This document shows, piece after piece, positions 51,488-60,053 of a stretch of DNA of 64,000 nucleotides (position 1 is the stretch's first letter; every line of letters starts with the position of its first letter). Source of the stretch: a virus (Duplodnaviria; Caudoviricetes). A model generated the notes under the pieces. It was not told where the DNA came from. It did no database searches and was given only the letters and a program-made list of their open reading frames with translations. The position numbers and the translations under genes were made by a program. The stretch covers positions 12,842-76,841 of IMG/VR virus record IMGVR_UViG_3300031813_000013. One strand, written 5' to 3'.

Positions 51488-52147
51488 TTATGTACTCAAT
51501 AGGTTGATTAATTGGTTTTCGACTGCACCAGCATAGTTCAAGTTCAACAAATTGATTTTTCTCTTTGATTCATTCAATTGGTCTTCATACTGAAAGATTG
51601 TCTGTGGATAAGCCTGTGTATTAACTGTGACTGTCACACCATAAGAGAAGGTTGAGGTCTTTGAACCTTGAACAACATTTGCATATGCATTTTGGTCAAT
51701 GATGTAAGTCGTGGTGTTGCTATTGTTTGTTGCACCATCTATCGTGGTAACAGTCTTAACATATTGATAAATTGTATTCTGTGTATATTTCAACACTTGA
51801 TTCATTGTGACCGTGTTTGCAGTAATGTTTAAACTATTTGCTGTTGCACTTGAGTATTTGTCAAACAAATAATCTTTAAACAAACCTGGCTCCATTGGCC
51901 AATCAGCATATCTATCAAACATTTGATTGCTATACATCACCATCCAGTATCTGTAAGGATCAGTATAGTATTTGTTTGCAATCGTATCTGGTGTGTCACC
52001 ACTTTGTATGTTGTAATCATAGAACAACAAAGAGTTATTCAACAAACTAGGAATCATTTCAACACGTTCCAAAATGTTAACAACATTAATGCTGTTACCT
52101 TGATAGTCTGTTGTTGTTATTTTAGGAAATTGGTTAAAGTATTTCAT
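51488..52147 (-). CDS. gp53: Baseplate wedge protein
   Basis: MKYFNQFPKI, YNIQSGDTPDTIANKYY...YWMV, WP, YEDQLNESKRKINLL. Confidence 0.9.
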   Translation of the reverse strand: MKYFNQFPKITTTDYQGNSINVVNILERVEMIPSLLNNSLLFYDYNIQSGDTPDTIANKYYTDPYRYWMVMYSNQMFDRYADWPMEPGLFKDYLFDKYSSATANSLNITANTVTMNQVLKYTQNTIYQYVKTVTTIDGATNNSNTTTYIIDQNAYANVVQGSKTSTFSYGVTVTVNTQAYPQTIFQYEDQLNESKRKINLLNLNYAGAVENQLINLLST

Positions 52148-53181
52148 TAACGTAATCCTGAAGTTGAAGAATCGTTGTATGTGCCTGAAGCACCAGTAGG
52201 ATTGGAACCACTCATTAGTTTTGACTTTGTAACAATTTCAATTTCTCTGAAGTTCAATGTCAATGTTGTTTGCACAGGTGCACCATCAACGTGGGCCGCA
52301 TAGCCATTAGGTGCAAAGTTTACATCCATTGCTGTTAATACGCAGTCACCATATCTTGGTAGATAGATGTTTTCATTTGTTCCAAACATAAACTCAACAT
52401 TAAAGAATGATGGTGGCTGGAAGAAAAGACCACGATTAGATGATGCGGCCGACAAAACATCTGGTGCAAAATGATATCTAAATGTGCTAATGATGTTGTT
52501 TACTGTTTGTGCCTCGTCTTGCGAACTTGGTGTGAAAGTAAAACTTAATTGAAATTCTCTAAAGCCAACACCTCTAAAGATTGACTGCATTTGTGGGTTA
52601 ATTGCATAACCAAGAGAAGATGCAACTGCTGGTGCAAAGTTGTCACTCACACCTCGAATTTTATCAGCCAACATTAAACCACCGTAAGCAGCGGCACGTT
52701 GTGCTTCTTGACTCATTTTACCTGTTGGATTGCTTAGAGAAATGCCGCTGGCGATATCTACAGCAAACTGAATGCCTTTAATTGCTAAACCTAAGTCATT
52801 GGTTAGACTTAAAGTGTCAAAGTCTGCACTATATGCTGCATTGACAGTATCTGGCATATATAAACCAATGACAGCAAGAGACTGTGTTGTCGGTGGATTA
52901 ATGTTGAAATTTTGTATGAAGTTTCCAAAGTTTTGTAAATTTTCACCAACAGAATTGGATTTGAATTGTGCAACTGCGGCTTCAGTAGATGCAGCAATAT
53001 CTGTTGTTTTTATGGTTTTAATCCAAAACTTAACGTAATGTGCTTTTGTTGAACTACCTAAATCTTGTGGATAGTTCAATATAGTACCAAGTTGTCCCAC
53101 TGGAGGGCCATACAAAGCTGCTGTTGGACCAACCGTATTAAAAACGTCTGGCGTTGATACTGATGTGATTGTGATTGGCAT
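52147..53181 (-). CDS. gp48: Baseplate tail tube cap
   Basis: LYMP, GYAINPQMQSIFRGVGFREFQLSFTFTPSSQDEA, CVLTAMDVNFAPNG, LNFREIEIVTK; CATAAATA at 53205-53212. Confidence 0.88.
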   Translation of the reverse strand: MPITITSVSTPDVFNTVGPTAALYGPPVGQLGTILNYPQDLGSSTKAHYVKFWIKTIKTTDIAASTEAAVAQFKSNSVGENLQNFGNFIQNFNINPPTTQSLAVIGLYMPDTVNAAYSADFDTLSLTNDLGLAIKGIQFAVDIASGISLSNPTGKMSQEAQRAAAYGGLMLADKIRGVSDNFAPAVASSLGYAINPQMQSIFRGVGFREFQLSFTFTPSSQDEAQTVNNIISTFRYHFAPDVLSAASSNRGLFFQPPSFFNVEFMFGTNENIYLPRYGDCVLTAMDVNFAPNGYAAHVDGAPVQTTLTLNFREIEIVTKSKLMSGSNPTGASGTYNDSSTSGLR

Positions 53182-53209
53182 TGTTTTTTATAGGAAATAT
53201 ATACTATTT

Positions 53210-53644
53210 ATGGCTTATTCTGGACGATTCATACCTAAGAATCCACAAAAGTACGTGGGTGACTACAAAAACATCATTTATCGGTCAACCTGGGAAGCTA
53301 AGGTGATGACCTGGCTCGATAAAAATCCAGATATTATCTCTTGGGCATCGGAAGAACTTATCATTCCTTATATATCTCCTATAGATAACAGATACCACAG
53401 ATACTTTCCAGACTTTCTGGTCAAGGTCAAAACTAGAGACGGTTCTATGAAAACCATGCTACTTGAGGTAAAACCAAAGAAACAGACCTTGGAGCCAGTA
53501 AAAAAGAAACGTATGACTAAGCAGTACCTCAACGAAATAGCGACTTATGGTGTGAACCAAGCAAAGTGGAAGGCAGCCAATGAATACTGCCTTGACCGTG
53601 GTTGGGAGTTTAAGATACTGACGGAAGAACACCTAGGAATATGA
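53210..53644 (+). CDS. gp4: Head completion nuclease
   Basis: MAYSGRFIPKNPQKYVGD, IIYRSTWE, WASEELIIPY, HRYFPDF, EVKP, NQAKWKAA; start moved from 53165 to ATG 53210. Confidence 0.92.
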   Translation: MAYSGRFIPKNPQKYVGDYKNIIYRSTWEAKVMTWLDKNPDIISWASEELIIPYISPIDNRYHRYFPDFLVKVKTRDGSMKTMLLEVKPKKQTLEPVKKKRMTKQYLNEIATYGVNQAKWKAANEYCLDRGWEFKILTEEHLGI

Positions 53645-53655
53645 CTAAATAAAAT

Positions 53656-54285
53656 ATGACCTCTAAACTTACCACACTTGCAGAACAAAAAAAGGCAGCC
53701 GGACATGTAACTATGTCTAAAGATGCCACCGTATGGTTGCAGGACAAGATTAATGAACTGAAAAAGGCATCTATTGCACAGATACCTTCAACCATAAATC
53801 GTGAGAAGTTTAGACAAATGTCTCAGTTTAGACTGGGAATGATGTATTGTTTCTATTATGATCCTAAAACTAAGGCAGATTTGCCATATTGGGACAGATT
53901 TCCAATGGTTTTGGTGTTAGAACGATACAATGATGGCTTCTTAGGCTTGAACCTGCATTATCTGCCAGTCAAGTTTAGAGTTGCTTTTTTGACAAAATTA
54001 ATGAGATTTGCTCAGTTGACACCAGACAATGATATAAAAAGAATGAGAATTTCTTATGATATCTTGGATGCATTTAAGAAATATGCTGAGTTTAGACCAT
54101 GCTTAAAGAGATACTTGCATAGTCACATTCGTTCAAAGATGTTGATGATTCAACCTAATGAGTGGGATGTGGCCACAATGCTACCTATACAACAATTTAG
54201 AGGTGCAAAACCACAAGAAGTATGGAGAGATTCCGTACATGAGTGGAAAGACCACATGAAACATTTTAACACGGACGAAGAATAA
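53656..54285 (+). CDS. gp2: DNA end protector protein
   Basis: YYDPKTKADLPYWDRFPMV, GFLGLNLHYLP, RPCLKRYL, LPIQQF. Confidence 0.9.
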   Translation: MTSKLTTLAEQKKAAGHVTMSKDATVWLQDKINELKKASIAQIPSTINREKFRQMSQFRLGMMYCFYYDPKTKADLPYWDRFPMVLVLERYNDGFLGLNLHYLPVKFRVAFLTKLMRFAQLTPDNDIKRMRISYDILDAFKKYAEFRPCLKRYLHSHIRSKMLMIQPNEWDVATMLPIQQFRGAKPQEVWRDSVHEWKDHMKHFNTDEE

Positions 54286-54286
54286 A

Positions 54287-55042
54287 ATGCCAACAGATAT
54301 TAACGGTTTTGTTAATTCATTTATTTCAGACTTAGCTAGACCAAGCAAGTTTGAAGTTACTATTTTTCCTCCTCAAATCTTTTCAAGCTTCTACCTTCAA
54401 CAACAATCTGGTGGCGGTTTTGCATTACGTTGCGAAAATGCCAATCTTCCAGGTAGAACCTTTGGTACAACAGAACAAAAGTTTGGTTCAAACCCATCAC
54501 AAAAGTTTCCAATGCATTCATCATACAATGATATGGACTTAACTTTTGTGGTATCAGGTGATATGTCTGAAAGAAATTTCTTTGATATTTGGATGGAGTA
54601 TATCAACCCAACCACATCATTTGATTTCTCATACAAAAAAGATTCAACAAAAAACAATAGTCAGGGTTACTCTGCTACAATTTTGGTAACACAATACGAC
54701 ACATATAACAATCCTGTTTATACGGTTCAACTATACAATGCATATCCAATCTCAGTGAATCAAATGGATTTGGATTGGTCTACTGACACATATCACAAAT
54801 TAACTGTGGTGTTTGCATATGACTACTGGCAAAATGTGGAAGCAATAAAGAGAGAGCAAACTATACCACAGCCAAGCAATGGCCAAGCACCATTGAGTAT
54901 ACAATCTTTGGGTGTGGGTGGCGCTGGCCAACTTGCTGTAGCACAAACAAATGCTTCTGTATTGAATGCTATAGTGAAAAGAAACACGAACACAAATACT
55001 ACAAATGCTGTGCAAGTTTATCAAAACGCTCAGAATCAATGA
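54287..55042 (+). CDS. gp54: Baseplate tail-tube initiator / tube-fold protein (gp54/gp19-like)
   Basis: LARPSKFEV, LRCENANLPGR, FFDIWMEYI, LYNAYPISV, LTVVFAYDYW. Confidence 0.75.
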   Translation: MPTDINGFVNSFISDLARPSKFEVTIFPPQIFSSFYLQQQSGGGFALRCENANLPGRTFGTTEQKFGSNPSQKFPMHSSYNDMDLTFVVSGDMSERNFFDIWMEYINPTTSFDFSYKKDSTKNNSQGYSATILVTQYDTYNNPVYTVQLYNAYPISVNQMDLDWSTDTYHKLTVVFAYDYWQNVEAIKREQTIPQPSNGQAPLSIQSLGVGGAGQLAVAQTNASVLNAIVKRNTNTNTTNAVQVYQNAQNQ

Positions 55043-55062: not shown

Positions 55063-55788
55063 ATGGCTTTACCAAAAATTGATGCGCCGATTTATGAATT
55101 GGAATTACCGTTATCTAAGAAACAAATTAGATACAGACCTTTTCTAGTAAAAGAACAACGTAACCTAATGATGGCAATGGAGTCTGACGATAAAGACACC
55201 ATTGAGAAAAACATCAAGCAGGTTCTAAACAACTGCACACTAACCAAAGGCGTCAACATTGATGCATTACCTATTTTGGACGTTGAATACTATTTCATTC
55301 AACTAAGAGCAAGGTCTGTTAGCGAAGTTGTAGACAACAAGTACCGTTGTGAGAATGAAGTTGATGGTAAGGTTTGCAATAACTCAATGGAAGTTAAGTT
55401 CAATCTATTGGATATCAAACTCGATAAAGAAGAAACCAACAAGAATGAGATTCAGTTGACCAAAGATATTGTGATTAAATTGACTTACCCACAATTCTCC
55501 GTATTGGAAAAAACATCTAAGTTAAACAATACAACTGATATGGCATTCAACATGATTGTTGATTGCATTGAATCTATTTTTGATGGCCAACAATTCCACT
55601 ATGCAAAAGAAACACCACGACAAGAGTTGGTTGATTTCATTGAATCTTTGAGTCATGAACAGTTTGCAAAGATTGAAGAATTTTTCAATAATCTACCAAG
55701 GTTAAATAAGAAGATTGAATGTACCTGTGGTAAATGTGGTTTTAAACACCTTATTGAAATTGAAGGCCTCGAAAATTTTTTCGGGTAA
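55063..55788 (+). CDS. gp26: Baseplate hub assembly chaperone
   Basis: MALPKIDAPIYELELP, YRPFLVKEQRNL, DVEYYFIQLRARSVSE, CxxC-like CGKC, IEGLENFFG. Confidence 0.9.
   Translation: MALPKIDAPIYELELPLSKKQIRYRPFLVKEQRNLMMAMESDDKDTIEKNIKQVLNNCTLTKGVNIDALPILDVEYYFIQLRARSVSEVVDNKYRCENEVDGKVCNNSMEVKFNLLDIKLDKEETNKNEIQLTKDIVIKLTYPQFSVLEKTSKLNNTTDMAFNMIVDCIESIFDGQQFHYAKETPRQELVDFIESLSHEQFAKIEEFFNNLPRLNKKIECTCGKCGFKHLIEIEGLENFFG
55773..55782 (+). promoter_or_regulatory. Putative -1 frameshift slippery site (A AAT TTT TTC)
   Basis: Two overlapping X XXY YYZ heptamers in the gp26 frame just before its TAA; the -1 frame is the gp51 frame. Confidence 0.65.
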
Positions 55789-55976
55789 TATTTCGTCATG
55801 ATAACTTAAGAAATTATTATAAGACAAACTTTGCATTGATACAGCACCACAAATATAGTTTGTCTGAACTTGAAGGTATGATACCTTGGGAGCGTGAAAT
55901 TTACGTTGCTATGCTTGCTCAGTATATTGAAGAAGAAAATGAGAAGATAAAACAAAGAAACAACGAACGTAGATAA
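55782..55976 (+). CDS. gp51: Baseplate hub assembly catalyst; no cognate AUG, probably read by frameshift from gp26
   Basis: Not in ORF track. RVIFRHDNLRNYYKTNFALIQHHKYSLSELEGMIPWEREIYVAMLAQYIEEENEKIKQRNNERR*. Confidence 0.85.
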   Translation, partial: RVIFRHDNLRNYYKTNFALIQHHKYSLSELEGMIPWEREIYVAMLAQYIEEENEKIKQRNNERR

Positions 55977-55978
55977 AC

Positions 55979-57418
55979 ATGTCCATTAAAGATACCATAC
56001 AAAAACTTGAAGAAGAAAAGAGAAAGGTCGATGAGAAACTCATGGACCATTTCCGCAAGGAAGTTTCTGAAGAAATGAAAAAAAAGATCCTTGAATATAA
56101 GGACCTTGTAGACCCATTTGTTCTGAAAAAAGTATTCGGTATCAAAGTAGCAAAATCAAGTGATGCTGGCGCTGTTAGACCAACCAAAAAGTTGAGTGAG
56201 AAGGCCTCTAGAACACCAAGAGATATCACACCTAAAGAAGCATTCTTTAACACCATCTCACAAAAAAGCAGCAAACTCAAAAAGGGTGACCACTTGGCCA
56301 ATATTGGTGCCAAGATTTTGTTGTTTATGGTGAAACAACGTGAAGAAAACAACTTAATGTCTGAGTTGGCAAGAAATTTCCAAAAGGCTAAAGAAGAAGA
56401 AATTAACGAACGCCACGATAACACCATTGGTAAGTTATATAAACGAGAGTTAAACAATAAAAGACAAGAAGAACGCAATACACGCAAAGGTAAATCCAGT
56501 CTATTGAAGACAGGTATTGTAGGTGCAGTGGGTGTTGGCCTATTATTGTTTGCAGAAGATGCACATGCAACTTTTTCTGACATGAAAAAGAAATTTGATA
56601 TGCTTACAACCGATATCAAAGATTTATTGCAGAAACCACCTAAAGAAGCAATTTCAGCCAACTTAGGTGATGTCTCATCATTAAAAGATATCATTGGTAA
56701 GGTCGAATCTGGTGGTAACTACAATCAATTGGTGTTACCGAAATCAGGACCAATGCCTGAAGAATTCAAAGGTATAGATTTATCCAAACTTTCATTAACA
56801 CAAGTGCAAGACTTACAATCAAAAATGAAACAGAGTGGAAAGTTTCCATCTCAAGCATTGGGTAAGTATCAGATTACACCAGACACACTAAAACATCTAA
56901 TTACGAAATTTAAAATTGATCCTAATGAAAAATTCACACCAGAATTGCAAGACAAATTGGCTGATGACCTGATTGAAGAAGCAGGTGGTTCTAAATTTAA
57001 AGCTGGAATCATAGACACAAACGAATTTCAAACCAATTTGGCAAAAACATGGGCCGCAATACCTGTTCCAACAGACATGAGTGTTAAGGATAATTTTGGC
57101 CAAAGAAATTTGAAAGCCGGTCAAAGTTATTATACTGGTGTCGGTGGAAACAAGGCAGCAAACATACAAGCACCTCTTACAACCGCTATATCTGGTATGA
57201 GAGGTTCAACTGCAACTCAGGTTTCTAATGTTTCAACCGCAGGTCAAAATGTTGTAGCAAAATCTCGTGATTTCATTGAAGAAGAAGGTGACAAATACAT
57301 ACCAATCATAGTGAATAGAGCAACAGTTTTACCAATTGGTCAAGTGAATTCTTTTATTAGAGATAAGGTTGCATTTGATGATAAAGCAACTATGGTCAGA
57401 GAATACTTTGGAAGATAA
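55979..57418 (+). CDS. Tape-measure-like (gp29-like) paralog 1 with lambda-R-like muramidase domain
   Basis: Follows gp26/51; central hydrophobic VGAVGVGLLL; IGKVESGG, ALGKYQITPDTL, FTPELQDKLA, WAAIP. Confidence 0.7.
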   Translation: MSIKDTIQKLEEEKRKVDEKLMDHFRKEVSEEMKKKILEYKDLVDPFVLKKVFGIKVAKSSDAGAVRPTKKLSEKASRTPRDITPKEAFFNTISQKSSKLKKGDHLANIGAKILLFMVKQREENNLMSELARNFQKAKEEEINERHDNTIGKLYKRELNNKRQEERNTRKGKSSLLKTGIVGAVGVGLLLFAEDAHATFSDMKKKFDMLTTDIKDLLQKPPKEAISANLGDVSSLKDIIGKVESGGNYNQLVLPKSGPMPEEFKGIDLSKLSLTQVQDLQSKMKQSGKFPSQALGKYQITPDTLKHLITKFKIDPNEKFTPELQDKLADDLIEEAGGSKFKAGIIDTNEFQTNLAKTWAAIPVPTDMSVKDNFGQRNLKAGQSYYTGVGGNKAANIQAPLTTAISGMRGSTATQVSNVSTAGQNVVAKSRDFIEEEGDKYIPIIVNRATVLPIGQVNSFIRDKVAFDDKATMVREYFGR

Positions 57419-57420
57419 AA

Positions 57421-59145
57421 ATGGCATCACTTAAACCACTATCAAACAAATCAGAAAAACCTAATATCTCAGCCACTACACTTGAGAGTATTTTGTCTGT
57501 GAGAAATACATTCGCCAATATGTTTGGTGAAATCTTTGGTGGTGCTGTCGATTCATCTTCTGTGCAAGGTGGCACATCAAGAAGTGTATCTAAGGGCAAA
57601 GCAAAAGCACAAACACCAGGCAACAATAGAACTAAAACAATTCAGCAGGCAGTTTATACCACAATAGCAGAAGGCCAAAACCAAAAACTAAAAAGTGGTG
57701 AAGGTGTTGCAAACGTATTTGCTAAAATCTACAATTTGATGAAGTTAGACCATGATGAGAAAAGAAAGCAATTCGAATTAGATAAAAACTTTGCAAGCGA
57801 AAAGAAAGAAAATCAAGAAAGACGAGACAAAGAATTGTTTGGTCTTTTGCATATGTTGACCGGTCATCCAAAAGCACCAGCACCTAAAGTTGAGAAAGAA
57901 AACAACAGTTCACTAATAACGAAAGTTCTTGGTGGTATGCTGTCTGGTGTTGCATCTATTTTTGGTGGTCTACTAAAGACTATTTGGTTTATTGGTAAAT
58001 TTATTGGTTCAATTTCTTTTGGCATAACAAAAGCACTAGGAAGCATAGTAACAACTGTTGTTGGTGCATTGACTCCTGTTTTGGCAAGCATAGCTACTTT
58101 TGTTTTTAAAGAAGTTAAAAATATAGTTATTGGTGCAGTGGAATTTCTCGGCAGAAAAATTTTGGGTTTACTCATTGGCCAAAAAGGTGGAAGAGTAAGC
58201 GGTAAAAATGAATTGGCCGCATCTCTAGCAGTAGGTGCTTTAGTTTCTGGTGTTAAAGATGACGATTGGCTGGCCGCAACCGCTGGAGGAATAGGTGCAA
58301 CTATTGGTGGTGTTGTCGGCGGTCCTGGAGGGGCACTTACGGGGTTCAATATTGGTGCCGGTGGAGTCGAGTCATTTAAAAGTATAGCCGGCCTCAATAA
58401 AGAACAAGAAGAAATAAGAAAATTTTTAATAGGTGAAGATGCGTTTAATTTGGAAAATTCCCAAAAAAGCTTTCTTGCCAGACTGTTCACCGATAAAGGT
58501 GCATTTACTGAAAGAGGTCAGGAAAAAATAGCAGAACTGCAACAACAAAAGATTGAAGCCGCACAAGAATATCATAAAGAAATGTTAGAGGCCATGGGTC
58601 CAAGATATAAACTGGTCGGATATACAGACGAAAAAAATCCTATAATTCCAATAGTCGAAAAAGATGGAAAAAGATTAGGACTTAAAGATTTTGCGGAAGA
58701 ATATGCTTTTAGAACACACTTTCAAGGCTTAGATAAAATATTGGGTGTTACACCAACAGGTGAAGCCGCACAACATCAATTAATTCAAGATACTGTTTCA
58801 GGTTTAATGAAACCACTAAACAACCTTAAAACTGAAGGCCTTGATATTTTGCAAGATGCGAAGGATGAATTCAATAAAGGTATGAGTTTTGCTTCATCAA
58901 AAATAGATGAAGGTATACAGAGTTTCGGTGGTTTGTTAGGTAATATTGGTGTGGATACAAAAGAATTGCCTAGCATATTCAAAGATATCAAAGGTAAATT
59001 TACATCACCAATTGTTATCAATAGCAATTCGGTTGCACCAACACAAGAGAAGCCACCAATTATATCTTCATTAGGTTTCACTCATGTTAGAAATGATGAA
59101 ACGACCTTGTTGAAGGTACAAAAACTAAATTATAGACCGGTATAA
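57421..59145 (+). CDS. Tape-measure-like (gp29-like) paralog 2
   Basis: 574 aa (T4 gp29 is about 590 aa); long Gly-rich amphipathic/hydrophobic segments; N-domain paralogous to the upstream gene. Confidence 0.65.
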   Translation: MASLKPLSNKSEKPNISATTLESILSVRNTFANMFGEIFGGAVDSSSVQGGTSRSVSKGKAKAQTPGNNRTKTIQQAVYTTIAEGQNQKLKSGEGVANVFAKIYNLMKLDHDEKRKQFELDKNFASEKKENQERRDKELFGLLHMLTGHPKAPAPKVEKENNSSLITKVLGGMLSGVASIFGGLLKTIWFIGKFIGSISFGITKALGSIVTTVVGALTPVLASIATFVFKEVKNIVIGAVEFLGRKILGLLIGQKGGRVSGKNELAASLAVGALVSGVKDDDWLAATAGGIGATIGGVVGGPGGALTGFNIGAGGVESFKSIAGLNKEQEEIRKFLIGEDAFNLENSQKSFLARLFTDKGAFTERGQEKIAELQQQKIEAAQEYHKEMLEAMGPRYKLVGYTDEKNPIIPIVEKDGKRLGLKDFAEEYAFRTHFQGLDKILGVTPTGEAAQHQLIQDTVSGLMKPLNNLKTEGLDILQDAKDEFNKGMSFASSKIDEGIQSFGGLLGNIGVDTKELPSIFKDIKGKFTSPIVINSNSVAPTQEKPPIISSLGFTHVRNDETTLLKVQKLNYRPV

Positions 59146-59174: not shown

Positions 59175-60053
59175 TTACTCGTCAGCCAACTTGCTGAAGT
59201 ATGCCAAATCGTCATCATCATCGGTAACCAATTCAGGTTCTTCCTGAACTGGTTTCTTAGGTGCAGACTTCAATGTCTCTACTGTGGTCTTAGGCATTGG
59301 TGTATCACCATTCAATCCTAGAACCTTTTCAAGGCGAGTCTTCAAGTCATCATAAGACTTGAATTCTTTGTCTGCAACCAACTCTGCAAGAGAGTGTTCT
59401 GACTTCCAAATCTTTTCCAACTCATCGTCATCATCCAACAAAGCGGATGAAGCGGCGAATTCAGACTTGTCATAGTTTTGATAGCCAGCAACCTTAGTGA
59501 TACGCAACTTGAAGTTAGCACCAGTCCACAGGTCAAATGGATTGATTGCTGTTTCATCTTCAAAAGCAGGATTCATTGCACCTGTAATCTTCTCAAAAAT
59601 CTTAGCACCGAACTTGAACAACTTAACTTGTCCTTCATTTTCTGGATGCTTAGGATCAGAAACGATATACACGTTAGCAATGTAATTCAACTTACGTTTT
59701 TGCTTACGAACGATTTCTTTGTTGGCTTCAATGCCAGAATTCCACAACTTGTTGTTGTGTTCACACACAGGACATTGTTGGTTCTTGGTAGTCAGGCAGT
59801 TATCAATCAACCAGCCACCAGGACCTTGAAAGCCGTGGCCAAAAATCTTGACCCATGGCAATGCATCATCACCATCAACTGCTGGCGCAGGCAAGAAACG
59901 GATAACGGCAGAACCATTACCTGCTTTGTCTACTTCTGGTTTCCAATAGTTGTCTTTGTTGTCTGCGGCACCTGTAGAATTAAGTGCCTCAACTGCTTTG
60001 GCAAGCTTGTCTAAGTTGCCAGATTGACGTTTGAGATTTGCGAATGAACTCAT
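59175..60053 (-). CDS. gp32: Single-stranded DNA-binding protein
   Basis: MSSFANLKR, WKPEVDKAGNGSAVIRFLP, HGFQGPGGW..NC...CPVC, FGAKIFEKI, NYDKSEF, acidic tail DDDLAYFSKLA. Confidence 0.96.
   Translation of the reverse strand: MSSFANLKRQSGNLDKLAKAVEALNSTGAADNKDNYWKPEVDKAGNGSAVIRFLPAPAVDGDDALPWVKIFGHGFQGPGGWLIDNCLTTKNQQCPVCEHNNKLWNSGIEANKEIVRKQKRKLNYIANVYIVSDPKHPENEGQVKLFKFGAKIFEKITGAMNPAFEDETAINPFDLWTGANFKLRITKVAGYQNYDKSEFAASSALLDDDDELEKIWKSEHSLAELVADKEFKSYDDLKTRLEKVLGLNGDTPMPKTTVETLKSAPKKPVQEEPELVTDDDDDLAYFSKLADE

Follow-up and report, generated by a model that had tools for sequence, protein, structure and literature searches.

The window, a 64,000-nucleotide stretch of a Caudoviricetes genome fragment (IMG/VR record IMGVR_UViG_3300031813_000013), carries a gene for a gp26-like chaperone of baseplate hub assembly, the 3' end of which overlaps a short open reading frame for the C-terminal domain of gp51 (Table 1). 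As checked in the sequence, the gp26-like gene ends in GAA AAT TTT TTC GGG TAA. This end contains two heptamers, T_TTT_TTC and A_AAT_TTT (55773-55779), both in the X_XXY_YYZ phase, and a slip of one base backward at either of them would lead to the identical protein. The predicted fusion consists of 240 residues from the gp26 frame and 64 from the -1 frame (...ENFF/RVIFRHDNL...). Its junction peptide would be HLIEIEGLENFFR, and the C terminus of the zero-frame product is HLIEIEGLENFFG. The GAAGG word lies 9 nt 5' of T_TTT_TTC.

The -1 frame is closed by a TGA at 55761-55763 and is open thereafter. Its earliest canonical start codon is the TTG at 55836 (the leucine of FALIQ), which is already within the conserved domain, and its first ATG encodes the methionine of GMIPWER. 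The sole near-cognate start codon upstream of the conserved residues is the ATA at 55788. An earlier reading of this DNA, made from the sequence alone (the sequence-only reading), had the frame opening at 55764 after the TGA, found no ATG or GTG ahead of the conserved region with TTG as the first candidate, and predicted a 304-residue gp26-51 made by slippage. The sequence and the arithmetic agree with it on each of these points.

Table 1. Positions of the features at the gp26-gp51 junction and of the adjacent genes in the window
Feature	Position	Strand	Evidence
Tail-tube family gene, 251 aa, directly upstream	54287..55042	+	PF06841 Phage_T4_gp19 7.7e-08; phrog_45 tail tube 5.8e-38
gp26-like baseplate hub assembly chaperone ORF, short product, 241 aa	55063..55788	+	PF12322 T4_baseplate 2.7e-59; phrog_150 1.8e-64; AF2 pLDDT 86
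SD-like GAAGG, possible stimulator	55762..55766	+	GGAGG/GAAGG/GAGGG-type word 14-15 nt before the heptamer in 73/83 junctions
Slippery heptamer T_TTT_TTC, gp26 phase (wobble position of codon 238, codons 239 and 240)	55776..55782	+	T6 invariant in 83 aligned junctions
gp26 stop codon TAA, one codon past the heptamer	55786..55788	+	Single intervening codon in 73/80 junctions
-1 ORF, gp51 C-terminal domain; would be read from 55782 after the slip, 64 codons, stop at 55974-55976	55764..55976	+	phrog_634 1.1e-28; phrog_150 C terminus 9.4e-09; T4 gp51 BLASTP 2e-06
Predicted trans-frame gp26-51, long product, 304 aa, putative counterpart of T4 gp51	55063..55976	+	Inferred from the anatomy and the comparison with T4
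Two downstream genes, 479 aa and 574 aa, candidate hub or tape measure clients	55979..59145	+	479 aa: phrog_90; 574 aa: no family match

The product of the gp26-like gene scored 200.9 bits against PF12322, for which the Pfam cutoff is 24.5. The best-matching family of the -1 peptide was phrog_634, the "baseplate hub assembly catalyst" (gp51). The peptide also matched the C-terminal end of phrog_150 and that of phrog_23772, and fused forms therefore exist within these families. The gp26-like gene gave the only PF12322 match in the 76.8-kb IMG/VR record. Because this record is only 46% complete, the presence of a second PF12322 copy was tested in complete genomes of relatives (see below).

Further upstream (51488-54285) are genes for a baseplate wedge subunit (phrog_232), a gp48-like tube cap (phrog_230), a gp4-like head completion protein (phrog_218), and a gp2-like DNA end protector (phrog_429); downstream, on the other strand (59175-60053), lies the gene for the gp32 single-stranded DNA-binding protein (phrog_224). 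These neighbors are T4-like morphogenesis genes in a synteny typical of marine T4-like phages. The gene order given by the sequence-only reading (tube-like gene, gp26, gp51, tape measure-like genes) is borne out upstream by the tube-family gene; the 479-residue and 574-residue proteins encoded downstream had no tape measure match.

The 479-residue protein (55979-57418), encoded directly after gp51, has a coiled-coil N terminus, a hydrophobic segment, and a lysozyme-like domain, and its residues 237-430 match phrog_90 (1.6e-20). It could be a cell wall hydrolase associated with the hub or the tape measure. The 574-residue protein (57421-59145) has a long, hydrophobic middle part rich in Gly, Ala, and Val and is close in size to T4 gp29 (590 residues). 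The similarity between the two was not significant, and searches of Pfam, PHROG, and NCBIfam returned no match for the 574-residue protein. NCBIfam gave no matches for any of the four proteins searched.

Conservation of the heptamer across relatives

A profile search with the tail yielded 80 IMG/VR loci; once the window and four cyanophage isolates had been added, the set comprised 80 distinct junctions. T_TTT_TTN in the gp26 phase was present in all 80 of them, with C as the last base in 68 junctions, A in 8, and T in 4. The final base of the heptamer may turn Phe into Leu, the T6 run remaining unchanged. The codon preceding TTT TTN was AGT in 43 junctions, AAT in 28, TCT in 6, GCT in 2, and GAT in 1, and ended in T in every case. 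The background fractions of T-ending codons in the same genes were 0.56 for Ser, 0.73 for Asn, 0.33 for Ala, and 0.79 for Asp. When 62 gp26 genes were aligned by codon, only 2 of the 233 third positions proved invariant, those of codons 238 and 239, and both lie inside the heptamer. Nowhere outside these two codons did conservation of the third position reach 95% or more.

In these AT-rich loci, T_TTT_TTN occurs in phase at a background frequency of about 2 per 1,000 codons. For any single genome, a heptamer somewhere in the 8-codon overlap is thus no more than mildly improbable (~2%); the significance of the heptamer rests on its invariance across relatives. Five distant phages have the same heptamer, phase, and -1 frame, namely, Vibrio phage nt-1 (Straboviridae), Caulobacter phage Cr30, Rhizobium phage P10VF (Pootjesviridae; TTT TTG), Paraglaciecola virus GD1, and Pelagibacter phage Mosig. 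An alignment of gp26 3' ends, which had been proposed as a check for a retained TTT TTC and an overlap with gp51, thus gave the expected signal both in the 80 junctions and in these five distant isolates.

The sequence-only reading had pointed to two slippery heptamers. Both are indeed in phase, and T_TTT_TTC is the conserved one. A_AAT_TTT was rejected as a functional site, since it is not conserved: the codon preceding TTT TTN is AGT in 43 of the 80 junctions.

Homopolymer runs are prone to sequencing errors, and the window is a metagenomic fragment of an incompletely recovered genome. An indel in the T-run might in principle have split one continuous gp26-51 reading frame, artificially or as a step in gene decay, leaving the tail unexpressed. 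Against this stands the finding that the frames and the length of the run are the same in 80 independent junctions, which include finished isolate genomes and several phage families. In a locus from another metagenome (L006), the gp51 peptide of which is 98% identical to that of the window, the junction is the same, which argues against an assembly error. Moreover, 13 residues of the gp51 tail are invariant and 15 nearly invariant in 72 sequences, a pattern that indicates strong purifying selection on the tail. On these data, the probability that the junction is an artefact or belongs to a decaying gene is negligible, and this reading appears effectively refuted.

Start codons for gp51

Start codons were counted in the 80 junctions, from the point at which the gp51 frame opens up to the conserved YY motif. 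No ATG, GTG, or TTG was available for gp51 in 37 junctions; 22 had only GTG or TTG, mostly a conserved Leu codon within the domain, and 21 had an ATG. The near-cognate codons found at the aligned position in the start-less junctions differed (ATA, ACA, ACC, and GCT). Given that 37 of 80 junctions have no start codon and share no near-cognate codon, independent initiation cannot be the general route to the gp51 domain.

Database records have dealt with the missing start codon in different ways. In Pelagibacter phage Mosig (L091, 1457-1678), the annotated gp51 begins at the internal Met of the ALMQHH motif and loses about 24 conserved residues, and in S-WAM2 (L003) gp51 was left unannotated; both the truncation and the omission are due to the lack of a start codon. 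A joined coding sequence was annotated in none of the database records that we inspected. If the frameshift is true, hundreds of T4-like genomes would need a corrected annotation, as their gp51 is either called as an ORF of 45 to 60 residues, in some cases starting at an internal Met, or missed altogether.

The start codons bear directly on the possibility that gp51 is a separate small protein, made by ribosomes that terminate at the gp26 stop codon and restart nearby (translational coupling), using an ATG where there is one or else a near-cognate codon, for instance the ATA at 55788, and that it acts as a noncovalent partner of gp26. The 21 junctions with an ATG fit this possibility, as the ATG lies 2 to 5 nt past the gp26 stop codon or overlaps it (for example, TAAGTATG and TAATG). 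In the window, it is the ATA that overlaps the stop codon, and database records annotate gp51 as separately started. However, coupling has no canonical start codon to work with in 37 junctions and only a varying set of near-cognate codons there, and it leaves unexplained the invariance of T6 over two wobble positions. The heptamer is also retained in the junctions that do have an ATG. In phages with an ATG just past the gp26 stop codon (21 of 80), a free gp51 of 57 residues may be made as well.

T4 gp51 and phages with a separate gp51

Genes 26 and 51 of T4 lie next to each other in divergent orientation. Their products are listed as hub assembly chaperones, and the particles do not contain gp51 (Leiman et al. 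2010, PMC3004832). T4 gp26 (208 residues) consists of PF12322 throughout and nothing else, and ends in ...GLKEFFELL. In T4 gp51 (249 residues), a complete PF12322 domain (residues 1-201, 3.9e-52) is extended by a tail of about 48 residues. The -1 peptide of the window matched residues 200-244 of T4 gp51 in BLASTP searches, and the tail was also aligned to T4 gp51 directly. The two parts of T4 gp51 meet at the position of the slip site, where T4 reads ...DIVDVF/KLLVNPDEI... and the window ...GLENFF/RVIFRHDNL.... T4 gp51, a full gp26-like domain with a homologous tail joined to it at the slip site, is thus built exactly like the predicted gp26-51.

The short form is the domain only and the long form the domain plus the tail in both systems, and the gp26-like protein of the window is a clear member of the PF12322 family. 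The systems differ in how the two forms are supplied: T4 has two divergent paralogous genes, whereas the window has a single gene and a -1 ORF, and the end of T4 gene 26 (TTC TTT) has no slippery run. Complete genomes showed the corresponding gene counts, with two PF12322 genes in T4 and one each in P-SSM2, S-PM2, Vibrio phage nt-1, and Pelagibacter phage Mosig. The gp51 of cyanophages and marine vibriophages was described earlier as lacking the first ~200 residues, and no frameshift was proposed (Sullivan et al. 2010, PMC3037559); a frameshift, if true, would explain this apparent loss.

Phages with a separate full-length gp51 serve as a natural control. We examined seven of them, namely, T4, VR26, Acinetobacter phage Henu6, Proteus phage Pm5461, Aeromonas phage avDM3, Klebsiella phage Fraggle, and L097, an IMG/VR relative of the T-even phages. 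An in-phase T_TTT_TTN was found at the homologous end of gp26 in none of the seven. T4 and VR26 retain the two Phe residues and encode them as TTC TTT (GAG TTC TTT GAG in T4). In these comparisons, phages that would need a frameshift have the T-run, and phages that would not need one lack it. Translational coupling leaves unexplained the loss of the T-run from phages with a full-length gp51, and it is at odds with T4, where the functional form of the gp51 domain is fused to a gp26-like body. We therefore regard coupling as a very unlikely source of the gp51 domain.

A third arrangement was observed in Klebsiella phage vB_KpnM_Fraggle_ER53 (L099, 1501-2794), in which genes for a full-length gp51-like protein (247 residues) and a gp26-like protein (187 residues) lie in tandem on the same strand, as opposed to the divergent orientation in T4. 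The pair is located after the tube gene and before gp25. This tandem arrangement may be an intermediate in the history of the duplication.

Predicted frameshift and candidate stimulatory elements

It is very likely, on comparative grounds, that a conserved programmed -1 frameshift yields a long form of the chaperone, gp26-51. Most ribosomes would read the gp26-like gene to the TAA at 55786 and produce the 241-residue chaperone. A minority would slip back by one base while two tRNA-Phe occupy UUU UUC of U_UUU_UUC, continue in the -1 frame with CGG GUA AUA..., and so extend the protein by 64 residues that form a small helical domain. The resulting gp26-51 would be the counterpart of T4 gp51. A fixed, low ratio of the long to the short form would serve the initiation of the baseplate hub and the tail tube, as gpG and gpGT do in lambda, and T4 and its close relatives would obtain the same pair from the two paralogous genes 26 and 51.

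The -1 frameshift had been proposed by the sequence-only reading. The comparative evidence supports it strongly, through the heptamer found in every junction, the location inside it of the only two invariant wobble positions among 233, the 37 start-less junctions, the build of T4 gp51, and the loss of the T-run where gp51 is separate. A search of the literature found no report of a gp26/gp51 frameshift.

Two elements near the heptamer are candidate stimulators of the slip, the SD-like word and the stop codon one codon past the heptamer. The word, of the GGAGG/GAAGG/GAGGG type, overlaps conserved Glu-Gly codons, in which G235 is invariant. The SD-like GAAGG noted earlier at about 9 nt upstream is present, and a role for it as a stimulator is inseparable from the conservation of the Glu-Gly codons. 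The 98 nt past the site in the window folded no better than shuffled sequences (z = 0.10), and RNAalifold predicted 0 conserved pairs for the 83 aligned junctions.

A hairpin of 7 pairs, CTCGAAAATTTTTTCGGG (55768-55785), arises in the window from pairing of GAA with TTC and encloses the heptamer itself. It was rejected as a stimulator, as it contains the heptamer, is confined to the clade of the window, and is absent in cyanophages. The hairpin is probably incidental.

The same 304-residue protein would also result from transcriptional slippage, in which RNA polymerase adds an extra U on the T6 run and the transcript is translated in the ordinary way. The conserved element is a homopolymer run, a single inserted U gives the required frame, the run is extended to T7 or T8 in a few relatives (L035, L050, L052, and L061), and the analysis revealed neither an RNA structure nor another stimulator of ribosomal slippage; all of this would suit a slipping polymerase. 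Yet a run of six U is short for a polymerase to slip on efficiently; in the bacterial cases known, the runs have about 8 to 9 bases or more. In addition, every run is in the X_XXY_YYZ phase, and most have exactly six T, which fits tandem re-pairing of tRNAs; the phasing is not decisive, because the two reading frames also fix it. Transcriptional slippage is, on balance, an unlikely origin of the long form.

The predicted ribosomal frameshift can be compared with that in Escherichia coli dnaX, which takes place at A_AAA_AAG, has an SD-like element on its upstream side and a hairpin on its downstream side, and truncates the protein. The window shares with dnaX a possible SD-like stimulator about 9 to 10 nt upstream and, in one of the frames, a stop codon shortly past the slip site. 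In contrast to dnaX, it has no downstream hairpin, and the slip would extend the protein rather than truncate it.

Comparison with lambda G/GT

Xu, Hendrix, and Duda are said to have described, in 2004, a conserved -1 frameshift in the tail assembly chaperone genes of long-tailed phages. According to a later review (Atkins et al. 2016, PMC5009743), the G-T chaperone frameshift is a conserved trait of long-tailed phages "except T4", and the frameshift described here, if true, would remove this sole stated exception. In both the window and lambda, an X_XXY_YYZ heptamer lies a few codons before the stop codon of a gene for a nonvirion assembly chaperone. A -1 ORF supplies an additional C-terminal domain, so that one chaperone is predicted to exist in two lengths in the window as well. 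A tube-family gene is located upstream, and the signal is kept despite sequence divergence. In Caulobacter phage Cr30, an annotated tape measure gene follows, one small gene later.

There are also differences. The gp26-like protein has 241 residues and extra domains with Cys motifs, whereas typical chaperones have about 100 to 140 residues, and it has no sequence-level match to the Pfam chaperone families. The heptamer is U_UUU_UUC here and G_GGA_AAG in lambda, the extension comprises only 64 residues, and the clients in T4 are hub components.

Structural models were made for the two parts of the fusion separately. AF2 modeled gp26 with a pLDDT of 86 and a pTM of 0.79, and the gp51 tail as a three-helix domain with a pLDDT of 81. 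A sequence search for relatives with solved structures found none, and a Foldseek search of the PDB with the gp26 model returned no match at an E value of ≤0.001. In a wide VIA-align search with the same model, the top three matches were 3fgx (Z = 7.6), 3klu (YqbN; Z = 7.2), and 2ob9, the HK97 tail assembly chaperone (Z = 6.9). About 85 residues were aligned in each case, within residues 1-95 of the model, and the next match had a Z score of 4.6; a Z score of about 7 is within the range that the tool calls common. YqbN we take to be a tail chaperone of the XkdN type from a prophage. The models are suggestive of a moderate resemblance between the N-terminal domain of gp26 and the HK97 tail assembly chaperone.

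The functional analogy of gp26 and gp26-51 to lambda G and GT appears to be a good one. The sequence-only reading had inferred that the pair is the G/GT equivalent of the T4 family. This holds as an analogy, by virtue of the two forms, the slip at the 3' end, the upstream tube gene, and the moderate likeness in fold, rather than as established descent from G/GT. The analogy offers a testable model for T4 gp26 and gp51, according to which they would be the short and long forms of one chaperone, acting at a set ratio in the initiation of the hub and the tube.

A broader proposal is that gp26 and gp26-51 are the G/GT of the T4 superfamily by descent, that the chaperone frameshift is universal in long-tailed phages that use a tape measure, and that the frameshift form is ancestral, with genes 26 and 51 of T4 arising from a later duplication. 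We advance it tentatively, as a possibility that falls somewhat short of being probable. If it were true, the frameshift would be ancestral in Kyanoviridae, pelagiphages, KVP40-like vibriophages, and rhizobiophages, the duplication in T4 would have hard-wired the two forms, and the "catalytic" gp51, obscure for so long, would gain a concrete mechanism.

A Foldseek search of BFVD with the gp26 model recovered gp26/gp51-like proteins in many large myoviruses. These included Ralstonia phage phiRSL1, Pseudomonas phage PaBG, Bacillus phages SP-15 and BCD7, and Campylobacter phage CP220; a further match was a "cysteine-rich protein" of Ackermannviridae. Since the gp26 fold recurs in jumbo phages and other large myoviruses, the chaperone family is far wider than the T4-like phages.
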